Positions 12,291 to 15,140 of a stretch of DNA of 64,000 nucleotides are shown here, one piece after another. Numbering within the stretch: position 1 is the first letter of the stretch; the number at the start of each line of letters is the position of its first letter. Made by a program: the position numbers and the translations under genes. The stretch comes from Escherichia coli (GTDB lineage Bacteria > Pseudomonadota > Gammaproteobacteria > Enterobacterales > Enterobacteriaceae), in assembly GCF_017348835.2 (NCBI RefSeq), contig NZ_CP071375.1; one strand, written 5' to 3'. The notes beneath the pieces are model-generated. The model saw only the letters and a list, made by a program, of their open reading frames with translations, was not told where the DNA came from and did not search any database.

Positions 12291-13094
12291 TTATGCTGGC
12301 AACGGCCCGTTTTGTATAGGGGCCGTTGCCTTACTTTTTAAATGTTCCATCGCGGCGATGCATACTGACTCATATTTAAACAGATCGTCAGCGAAAAAAA
12401 TGTCCAACTTATCAATACATTCCTGGCTCAATAAATGTGCCTGTAGCGAGAAGCTTAAAACCTCATACCCGAGACGTTTTCTAAGTGAAATATCTGAAAT
12501 ACTCATAATATCTTCAAGCACACCACTTCCCATTCCCGGAAGATTTAGTGGATTAAAAAGAAGATTGATATTAAGCATTGATATTATCGAAGGGAACTTC
12601 AGTAGATGCTCATTATTTTGAATCGCAGCAAAAATGCTCCCGGCAGGATGTATATAATTTTTTTCATAGTATATAGTCCTTAAATAATGAATAACCAACC
12701 TGTTTTTTATATTGATCAAATTGGTCATTTTTTCTGGGCGAAATACAGAAGTGACATCCATTCCAATAAAATCTTTATTTATACCTCTTATCCGAATTTC
12801 ACTACCATAAAGATTATTAATTATTACTTTATATTTAGCATTGTCCTGCAGATACGTATCAAAACTAAGTGCTGGCGCTCCTGGCTTTGAGGCATCAAAG
12901 TTAATGTTAGACATATAGGCAATCATATAATTAAAATTTGATTCTGCTATTTCATCGCAGTCACATTGACCCGTTGATATAAAGAAAGTGAGTGCTGTCA
13001 TAGTAGACTGCAGCCTTTCTTTAAAAGAGTCGAAAGCCAGGCTTTTAATATTTAAATCACCATAATTACTCTGTATTAAGTTTGTAGAAAACAT
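12291..13094 (-). CDS. ydjO: Uncharacterised protein YdjO (AT-rich gene)
   Basis: Track ORF of 271 aa; start set to the ATG at 13094 (MFSTNLIQSNYGDL..., 267 aa), preceded by a GAGGTG Shine-Dalgarno. Very low GC. Confidence 0.8.
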   Translation of the reverse strand: MFSTNLIQSNYGDLNIKSLAFDSFKERLQSTMTALTFFISTGQCDCDEIAESNFNYMIAYMSNINFDASKPGAPALSFDTYLQDNAKYKVIINNLYGSEIRIRGINKDFIGMDVTSVFRPEKMTNLINIKNRLVIHYLRTIYYEKNYIHPAGSIFAAIQNNEHLLKFPSIISMLNINLLFNPLNLPGMGSGVLEDIMSISDISLRKRLGYEVLSFSLQAHLLSQECIDKLDIFFADDLFKYESVCIAAMEHLKSKATAPIQNGPLPA

Positions 13095-13162
13095 CTCCCA
13101 CCTCATATTGAACCGCCCCGGAAATCCTGGAGACTAAACTCCCTGAGAAAGAGGTAAACAGG

Positions 13163-13489
13163 ATGACTAAAAATACTCGTTTTTCCCCCGAAGTCCGTCA
13201 GCGGGCGATTCGTATGGTTCTGGAAAGTCAGGATGAATATGACTCACAATGGGCGACAATTTGTTCCATTGCTCCAAAGATTGGCTGTACGCCGGAGACT
13301 CTGCGTGTCTGGGTTCGCCAGCATGAGCGGGATACCGGGGGCGGTGATGGCGGGCTCACCACCGCTGAACGTCAGCGTCTGAAAGAGCTGGAACGTGAAA
13401 ATCGTGAACTGCGCCGCAGTAACGATATCCTTCGCCAGGCTTCCGCTTATTTTGCGAAGGCGGAGTTCGACCGCCTCTGGAAAAAATGA
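13163..13489 (+). CDS. IS629-like transposase OrfA (helix-turn-helix / leucine-zipper part)
   Basis: 108 aa [26 protein letters not shown]...; recognised as IS3-family (IS629/IS1203 group) OrfA. Confidence 0.9.
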
Positions 13490-14376
13490 TGCCACTGCTG
13501 GATAAGCTGCGTGAGCAGTACGGGGTCGGACCGCTATGCAGCGAACTGCATATTGCCCCGTCAACGTATTACCATTGTCAGCAACAGCGACATCATCCGG
13601 ATAAACGCAGTGCCCGTGCGCAGCACGATGACTGGCTGAAGAAAGAGATACAGCGCGTATACGATGAAAATCACCAGGTATACGGTGTGCGTAAAGTCTG
13701 GCGTCAGTTGTTACGGGAAGGTATCAGAGTGGCCAGATGCACTGTGGCACGTCTCATGGCAGTTATGGGACTTGCCGGTGTTCTCCGGGGTAAAAAGGTC
13801 CGCACTACCGTCAGCCGGAAAGCCGTTGCCGCATGCGACCGCGTAAACCGTCAGTTCGTGGCAGAACGTCCAGACCAGTTGTGGGTGGCTGATTTTACCT
13901 GGGTAAGCACATGGCAGGGCTTCGTTTATGTGGCGTTCATCATTGATGTGTTCGCCGGATACATCGTGGGATGGCAGGTCTCATCATCCATGGAAACAAC
14001 ATTCGTGCTGGATGCACTGGAGCAGGCGTTGTGGGCCCGTCGGCCGTCCGGCACAATCCATCACAGTGATAAAGGTTCTCAGTATGTATCGCTGGCCTAC
14101 ACGCAGCGGCTTAAGGAAGCCGGATTACTGGCATCAACAGGGAGTACTGGCGACTCGTATGACAACGCGATGGCGGAGAGCATCAATGGTCTTTACAAAG
14201 CGGAGGTAATACACCGTAAGAGCTGGAAAAACCGGACAGAAGTGGAACTGGCCACACTCACGTGGGTGGACTGGTATAACAATCGACGATTGCTGGAAAG
14301 GCTGGGCCATACTCCCCCGGCAGAAGCAGAAAAAGCTTATTATGCTTCCATCGGAAACGATGATCTGGCAGCCTGA
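13486..14376 (+). CDS. IS629-like transposase OrfB (DDE catalytic part), in the -1 frame relative to OrfA
   Basis: 296 aa ORF with DDE-integrase features (HHSDKGSQY..., conserved acidic residues), overlapping orfA by 4 nt (ATGA). Confidence 0.9.
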
Positions 14377-14695
14377 GTTCACAGATAAAACACTCTCCAG
14401 GAAACCCGGGGCGGTTCATATTGTTAACAAAATTATTATCTCATTTAAATCTAAGTCATTTACAATATAAGTTTAAGAGCGACGCCACAGGATGAACTAT
14501 CAAAAATAGCTCATCATGATTAGCAAAACTTAACCATTTTAAAATAAATAAACAATTAAAGAAAAAAGATCACTTATTTATAGCAATAGATCGTCAAAGA
14601 CAGCTTTTTGTTACAGGTGGTTTGAATGAATGTAGCAATGAAATACAGAATTTCAGGCCATGTAACTCCCGGCAAAACCGGGAGGTACGTAATCT

Positions 14696-14938
14696 TTACT
14701 CAGTCACTTCCCCTTCCTGGCGGATCTGATTTGCCCAACGCTGGGCGGATTCAGGCACAGTAAACGCCGGTGAGCGCAGAAATGACTCTCCCATCAGTAC
14801 AAACGCAACATATTTGCCACGCAGCATCCAGACATCACGAAACGAATCCATCTTTATCGCATGTTCTGGCGGCGCGGGTTCCGTGCGTGGGACATAGCTA
14901 ATAATCTGGCGGTTTTGCTGGCGGAGCGGTTTCTTCAT
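14696..14938 (-). CDS. cedA: Cell-division modulator CedA
   Basis: Track ORF of 87 aa; internal ATG at 14938 gives the 80 aa protein MKKPLRQQNRQIISYVPRTEPAPPEH... recognised as CedA. Confidence 0.8.
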   Translation of the reverse strand: MKKPLRQQNRQIISYVPRTEPAPPEHAIKMDSFRDVWMLRGKYVAFVLMGESFLRSPAFTVPESAQRWANQIRQEGEVTE

Positions 14939-15140
14939 TACTGGCTTCACTAAACGCATATTAAAAATCAGAAAACTGTAGTTTAGCCGATTTAGCCCCT
15001 GTACGTCCCGCTTTGCGTGTATTTCATAACACCGTTTCCAGAATAGTCTCCGAAGCGGGGTCTGGCTGGTGGTCTATAGTTAGAGAGTTTTTTGACCAAA
15101 ACAGCGGCCCTTTCAGTAATAAATTAAGGAGACGAGTTCA

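Follow-up and report, generated by a model that had tools for sequence, protein, structure and literature searches.

The spacer between cedA and ydjO in Escherichia coli PE164 is occupied by an insertion sequence that ends only a few bases in front of ydjO, which raises the questions of what kind of element this is, how recently it arrived and whether ydjO is still connected to a promoter. A first-pass annotation of the window, by which we mean the whole 64-kb stretch of DNA analysed here, had described the insertion as a complete, probably recent and possibly still active IS629-like copy. From the boundaries of the element, its coding capacity, its distribution in complete genomes and the position of the predicted ydjO promoter, it is very probably a complete and apparently functional IS629 which was inserted recently in the PE164 lineage into the cedA-ydjO spacer, with duplication of a TAT triplet, and which uncoupled ydjO from its predicted promoter. 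The features on which this reading is based are collected in Table 1.

Table 1. Features of the IS629 insertion and the neighbouring genes, in positions of the 64-kb window.
Feature	Position	Strand	Evidence
ydjO, 267 aa, intact, 5' region interrupted	12291..13094	-	ORF list, RefSeq
Left target-site duplication copy, TAT	13106..13108		Single TAT at F2_81 and K-12 empty sites
IRL (left terminal inverted repeat), begins 5'-TG	13109..13133	+	Repeat finder
orfA, 108 aa, HTH_Tnp_1 DNA-binding domain	13163..13489	+	ORF list, Pfam
ALIL pseudoknot RF01497, predicted frameshift stimulator	13444..13560	+	Rfam
A6 slippery run (AAAAAA), predicted -1 programmed frameshift from OrfA to OrfAB	13481..13486	+	Sequence reading
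orfB, 296 aa, -1 frame, HTH_21 and rve (DDE) core	13486..14376	+	ORF list, NF033516, Pfam
IRR (right terminal inverted repeat), finishes CA-3'	14394..14418	+	Repeat finder
Right target-site duplication copy, TAT	14419..14421		Same triplet once at empty sites
Predicted native ydjO promoter, ATGACT-16-AATAAT	14432..14459	-	Consensus scan and genomic SELEX
cedA, upstream neighbour, uninterrupted	14696..14959	-	ORF list, RefSeq

Boundaries and target duplication

Reading of the sequence placed the element at window positions 13109-14418 (1310 bp), starting with TGAACCGCCCCGG... and finishing with ...CCGGGGCGGTTCA. Its terminal inverted repeats of 25 nt are imperfect, with 22 of 25 positions complementary (88%) and outermost ends of TGAAC...GTTCA, and thus both the coordinates and the 25-bp repeats proposed in the first-pass annotation could be verified. 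The TAT direct repeat that had been described on both flanks was likewise found, and its length of 3 bp fits the duplications of 3-4 bp reported for IS629, which inserts without sequence specificity of the target (PMC3271280). When the earlier proposal of a comparison with an empty site was followed up, the two flanks joined over one TAT in strain F2_81 as well as in K-12 MG1655. Alternative boundaries had to be considered due to the pentamer CATAT, which is present at both junctions (13104-13108 and 14417-14421). These were ruled out, as five other copies of the element finish with ...GGTTCA beside unrelated flanks, which assigns the terminal CA to the IS and leaves a duplication of 3 bp.

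The claim that the IS is the sole mobile element of the window also held, since BLAST analysis of the IS and its proteins detected no second copy or fragment within the 64 kb and the RefSeq annotation of the same region is free of further transposase, integrase or phage genes, listing instead the core genes from infC to cdgI together with espL1.

Transposase genes and frameshift signal

Both orfA and orfB, previously described as intact, are open and equal in length to the corresponding genes in IS629 of phage BP-4795. The two frames overlap at AAAAAATGATG and their start coordinates correspond to a -1 phase. A -1 slip would convert ...RLWKK-stop to ...RLWKK-MMPLL... and lead to an OrfAB protein of 404 aa, and the length of the two-piece CDS annotated in RefSeq (13163-14376; 'IS3 family transposase, programmed frameshift') fits this fusion. 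The match to the ALIL model (RF01497) reached 120.2 bits (gathering score 50; E 6.6e-32) over the full model (1-117); it covers the A6 run, with the main stem downstream of the run. OrfB scored 311.8 bits against the NCBIfam model NF033516 'IS3 family transposase' (cut-off 160), Pfam analysis of the OrfAB fusion led to HTH_Tnp_1, HTH_21 and rve, and the catalytic triad of OrfB was assigned to D136, D195 and E231, the second D and the E being separated by 35 residues (DD(35)E), and K238 lying seven residues after the E.

By analogy to the IS3 family, OrfA would be translated alone, while a -1 ribosomal slip at the A6 run, with the ALIL pseudoknot as its stimulator, would give the OrfAB transposase, and this protein with its DDE core would move the element by copy-out-paste-in via a circular intermediate. 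From these intact parts we infer that the copy should be capable of transposition, and nothing in its sequence suggests an inactivation.

Assignment to IS629

The assignment to the IS3 family, as made in the first-pass annotation, is confirmed by the NF033516 score and the three Pfam domains, and the element shows all further family characteristics, namely a length within ~1.2-1.55 kb, TG...CA ends, overlapping -1 frames, a frameshift signal, HTH and DDE domains and a duplication of 3-4 bp. It shares the -1 orfA/orfB layout, the TG...CA ends, the DD(35)E motif and the 3-4 bp duplication with IS911, IS3 and IS2, the paradigms of the family, and their copy-out-paste-in transposition is presumed to be common to IS629. 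These three are distinct named elements of other subgroups, and promoters reading outward or formed at the junction have been described for them; a literature search on such a promoter of IS629 led to nothing specific. The ALIL frameshift pseudoknot was defined in IS3411, with which the present element shares the full-length ALIL match 3' of an A-rich slip site, a likeness drawn via the Rfam model.

The closest named relative compared is IS629 of the Stx1 phage BP-4795 (AJ556162, ORF77/ORF78), which agrees with the element at 99.0% of all 1310 bp (13 differences) and thereby bears out the earlier naming as IS629-like. Both elements have the same length, the same 12 terminal nucleotides at each end, an orfA of 327 nt and an orfB of 891 nt, but differ in two amino acids of OrfA, three amino acids of OrfB and the insertion site. 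Copies of IS1203 or IS1203v, an IS629 isoform, in Stx2a phages are 98.2% identical to the ydjO copy, and a chromosomal copy of F2_81 located in dprA is 98.9% identical; these copies, too, comprise 1310 bp and have the same 12 terminal nucleotides at each end. By convention, isoforms are copies that share, along their full length, at least 95% of the nucleotides with a named copy, and the identities to the deposited phage copies (99.0% and 98.2%) lie above this value. In the sister strain F2_18C, 23 chromosomal IS1203 or IS1203-like copies have been typed as 'IS1203 (IS629 variant)' (PMC6985150), and Rump et al. treated IS1203 and IS3411 as IS629 isoforms with sub-types that differ by 4-5% (PMC3271280). 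Judged by identity to the deposited phage copies, IS629 (IS1203 isoform group) is a sound name. The element is therefore an ordinary intact IS629/IS1203 copy, already known and annotated in RefSeq, and does not represent a new kind.

Distribution of the insertion

The window corresponds to positions 2793049-2857048 of the chromosome of PE164, an isolate from a pig (diarrhoea and blood) in Nanjing, China, except for 4 bases. These are found at window positions 13859, 15364, 19092 and 24406, with A or T in the window and G or C in the RefSeq PE164 record each time. At 13859 the exchange affects residue 125 of OrfB, which reads V in the window but A in RefSeq; the T of the window is shared by all five further copies that were compared. 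The window may stem from an earlier assembly version or from a sister isolate. The strain background is reflected by an intact espL1, encoding a type III secretion effector, between thrS and yniD (window 3054-4952), which fits an attaching-effacing (aEPEC/EHEC-like) strain.

When a probe of 2901 bp comprising the element and both flanks was searched against 5426 complete E. coli genomes, a full-length match was obtained only in the PE164 chromosome, and no other genome had a place covering at least 80% of the probe. F2_81, isolated from a pig in Australia, is the closest relative for this locus, with flanks of 99.9% identity and without the IS; its plasmid pF2_18C_FIB and the coordinates of its dprA::IS insertion match those of F2_18C, an ST302 atypical EPEC (PMC6985150). 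K-12, the second empty site compared, has been reported to be without IS629 (bioRxiv 10.1101/2023.06.07.543989). Occupation of the site in one of 5426 complete genomes and the empty site of the nearest relative agree with the recent insertion suggested by the first-pass annotation. Moreover, the YdjO protein has the same accession in PE164 (occupied) and F2_81 (empty), and the unique site, the perfect duplication and the unchanged protein together indicate a recent event. The insertion is thus a recent, strain-specific polymorphism in the PE164 lineage. A hot spot for insertion was considered as well and rejected, as of 4293 genomes matched by an empty-site probe of 401 bp, 4255 had a contiguous and just 24 a split match.

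Relation to other copies

Elements of the IS629 kind are present in 4260 of the 5426 complete E. coli genomes (near-full-length in 3042), and the PE164 chromosome has 32 places matching the element. As copies with 99% identity to the ydjO copy are few in E. coli, an origin from Shigella was considered, but rejected since the window agrees with PE164 throughout apart from 4 bases. A donor could not be found, as exact look-ups of OrfB and OrfAB had no match elsewhere, whereas the exact OrfA protein was detected in 54 blocks of a public collection. The copy on plasmid pPE164 and the chromosomal dprA copy of F2_81 are identical to each other, and the ydjO copy differs from both at 14 positions. 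These 14 differences are clustered at IS positions 141-165, 232-246 and 1204-1251. As far as can be read from the sequences, such clusters look like a mosaic to which different IS variants contributed by recombination or gene conversion. In the variant of pPE164 and F2_81, the main one of the lineage, a G-to-A exchange at IS position 380 (window 13488) gives orfA the stop codon TAA in place of TGA and abolishes the ATG of orfB. OrfB of this variant would consequently be expressible only as a frameshift fusion, while the ydjO copy keeps ATGATG with the TGA stop.

The closest copy outside PE164 was found on the metagenome scaffold VATA22-1...scaffold_564 (2447-3596), with 2 differences in the 1150 nt present. 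This copy is partial because the scaffold is truncated, and it adjoins genes for TrbM, a Cag12-like protein and a topoisomerase, a conjugative-plasmid-like context. Several other loci with an identical OrfA adjoin katP and cytochrome b562 genes, as on virulence plasmids of the pO157 type, one of them also being near stcE.

Separation of ydjO from its predicted promoter

The start codon of ydjO is located at 13092-13094 on the minus strand, and exactly 14 bases (13095-13108) lie between it and the left end of the IS, the distance reported in the first-pass annotation. Its description of the transposase frames as reading away from ydjO was also correct, the frames being on the plus strand and ydjO on the minus strand in a divergent arrangement. 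What is still joined to ydjO are these 14 bp, with the Shine-Dalgarno sequence GAGG among them, and the coding frame is untouched. On the other side, 275 bp lie between the right IS end and the stop codon of cedA, a gene that is likewise untouched.

In a consensus scan of the region, the minus strand gave a single sigma-70-like site, ATGACT-16-AATAAT (14459-14432). ATGACT-16-AATAAT had already been predicted by genomic SELEX (RpoD holoenzyme) to be the promoter of ydjO in the ydjO-cedA spacer, and H-NS was noted for it as well (PMC3946193). The hexamers and the spacing from the scan match the SELEX-listed promoter exactly, and the K-12 sequence is identical. As this predicted site is now beyond the IS, ydjO is indeed cut off from its predicted native promoter as had been proposed, with the IS and the second TAT copy adding up to 1313 bp between the two. 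Between the -10 hexamer and the duplicated TAT there are 10 nt, which puts the IS around +4 to +6 of the predicted ydjO transcript and thus probably inside its 5' UTR.

The earlier statement that no obvious outward promoter faces ydjO was supported by a relaxed scan, in which nothing on the minus strand of 13080-13520 reached 8 of 12 matches to a promoter, and a stricter consensus scan for an outward promoter towards ydjO likewise led to none. Moreover, the 14 bp between the IS and the ATG leave no room for a new or hybrid promoter in the flank. Transcription of ydjO would now have to proceed from the old promoter through 1.3 kb of IS sequence, read in antisense and untranslated, unless a cryptic start within the element is used. 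On account of Rho-dependent polarity, most transcripts from the old promoter would be expected to terminate there, so that ydjO is probably down-regulated. A reduced expression of ydjO by uncoupling from the promoter predicted by SELEX and consensus is hence the most likely effect.

The GC content is 34.7% for ydjO (12291-13094) and 30.7% for the cedA-ydjO spacer (14422-14695), compared to 49.7% for the window. Such low values fit binding of H-NS and are typical of horizontally acquired, H-NS-bound DNA, although ydjO, an orphan gene with no assigned function that is restricted to E. coli and Shigella, is reported to be conserved there. Due to this fit with H-NS binding, ydjO may be nearly silent anyway, and the effect of the insertion could then be nil.

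Alternative explanations

Insertion sequences repeated in a genome are a classic source of misassembly, and with 32 matching places on the PE164 chromosome, i.e. about 30 copies, one of them might have been misplaced at the ydjO locus. We regard such an artefact as practically negligible, as a misjoin would not give clean junctions with a 3-bp duplication of a triplet that is single in the empty sites, the window and the RefSeq record agree on the insertion despite their 4 different bases in 64 kb, and the ydjO copy has a sequence variant of its own. A structurally intact yet transpositionally dead or crippled passenger could be suspected from two positions at which the ydjO copy differs from all five copies compared, 13351 (silent) and 13534 (L17 of OrfB, V in the others), and from the lack of records for the exact OrfB and OrfAB proteins elsewhere. 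Position 13534, however, corresponds to a bulge without base pairing in the ALIL model, and no damage is seen in the catalytic residues, the slip site, the pseudoknot or either inverted repeat. As the copy beside plasmid-type genes (TrbM, Cag12) on the metagenome scaffold is just 2 of 1150 positions off, and the perfect duplication and the single-genome distribution reflect recent movement, a dead copy appears unlikely compared to a functional one.

With regard to ydjO, the insertion might also act in the opposite direction and activate or de-repress the gene, either by breaking an H-NS filament, as for IS insertions at bgl, or by a cryptic promoter that reads outward from within the left IS end. 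Outward -35 elements of the IS3 family lie in the IRR, which points away from ydjO in the present orientation, and neither the scans nor the 14-bp flank, in which no hybrid promoter is possible, offer a start site towards the gene. The very AT-rich ydjO and spacer, the listing of ydjO with H-NS in the SELEX table and the untouched Shine-Dalgarno sequence and coding frame would be compatible with an activation, and the activation of silent genes by IS elements is well documented in general (PMC9330008). Nevertheless, de-repression by disruption of H-NS binding is without positive support at this locus, and we consider activation by either route quite improbable, in favour of the reduced expression described above.

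Significance of the insertion

IS629/IS1203 is among the best-studied insertion sequences of E. coli, it is the basis of IS-printing in O157 and it serves as a substrate of the IEE excision enhancer. The copy described here is a lineage marker found in one of 5426 complete genomes and of little importance beyond strain typing, and it also represents a natural promoter-disruption allele of ydjO with respect to the predicted promoter. That the insertion was selected in the lineage of this pig pathogen for a changed expression of ydjO, be it silencing or de-repression by disruption of H-NS binding, is very improbable; if true, PE164 and F2_81 would form a natural isogenic-like pair for the function of ydjO. 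An E. coli-specific qPCR assay is directed at ydjO (PMC11057252); its amplicon is within the coding sequence and is unaffected by the IS. A different element, IS1A, was observed within ydjO itself in strain A10 (NZ_CP195143.1).
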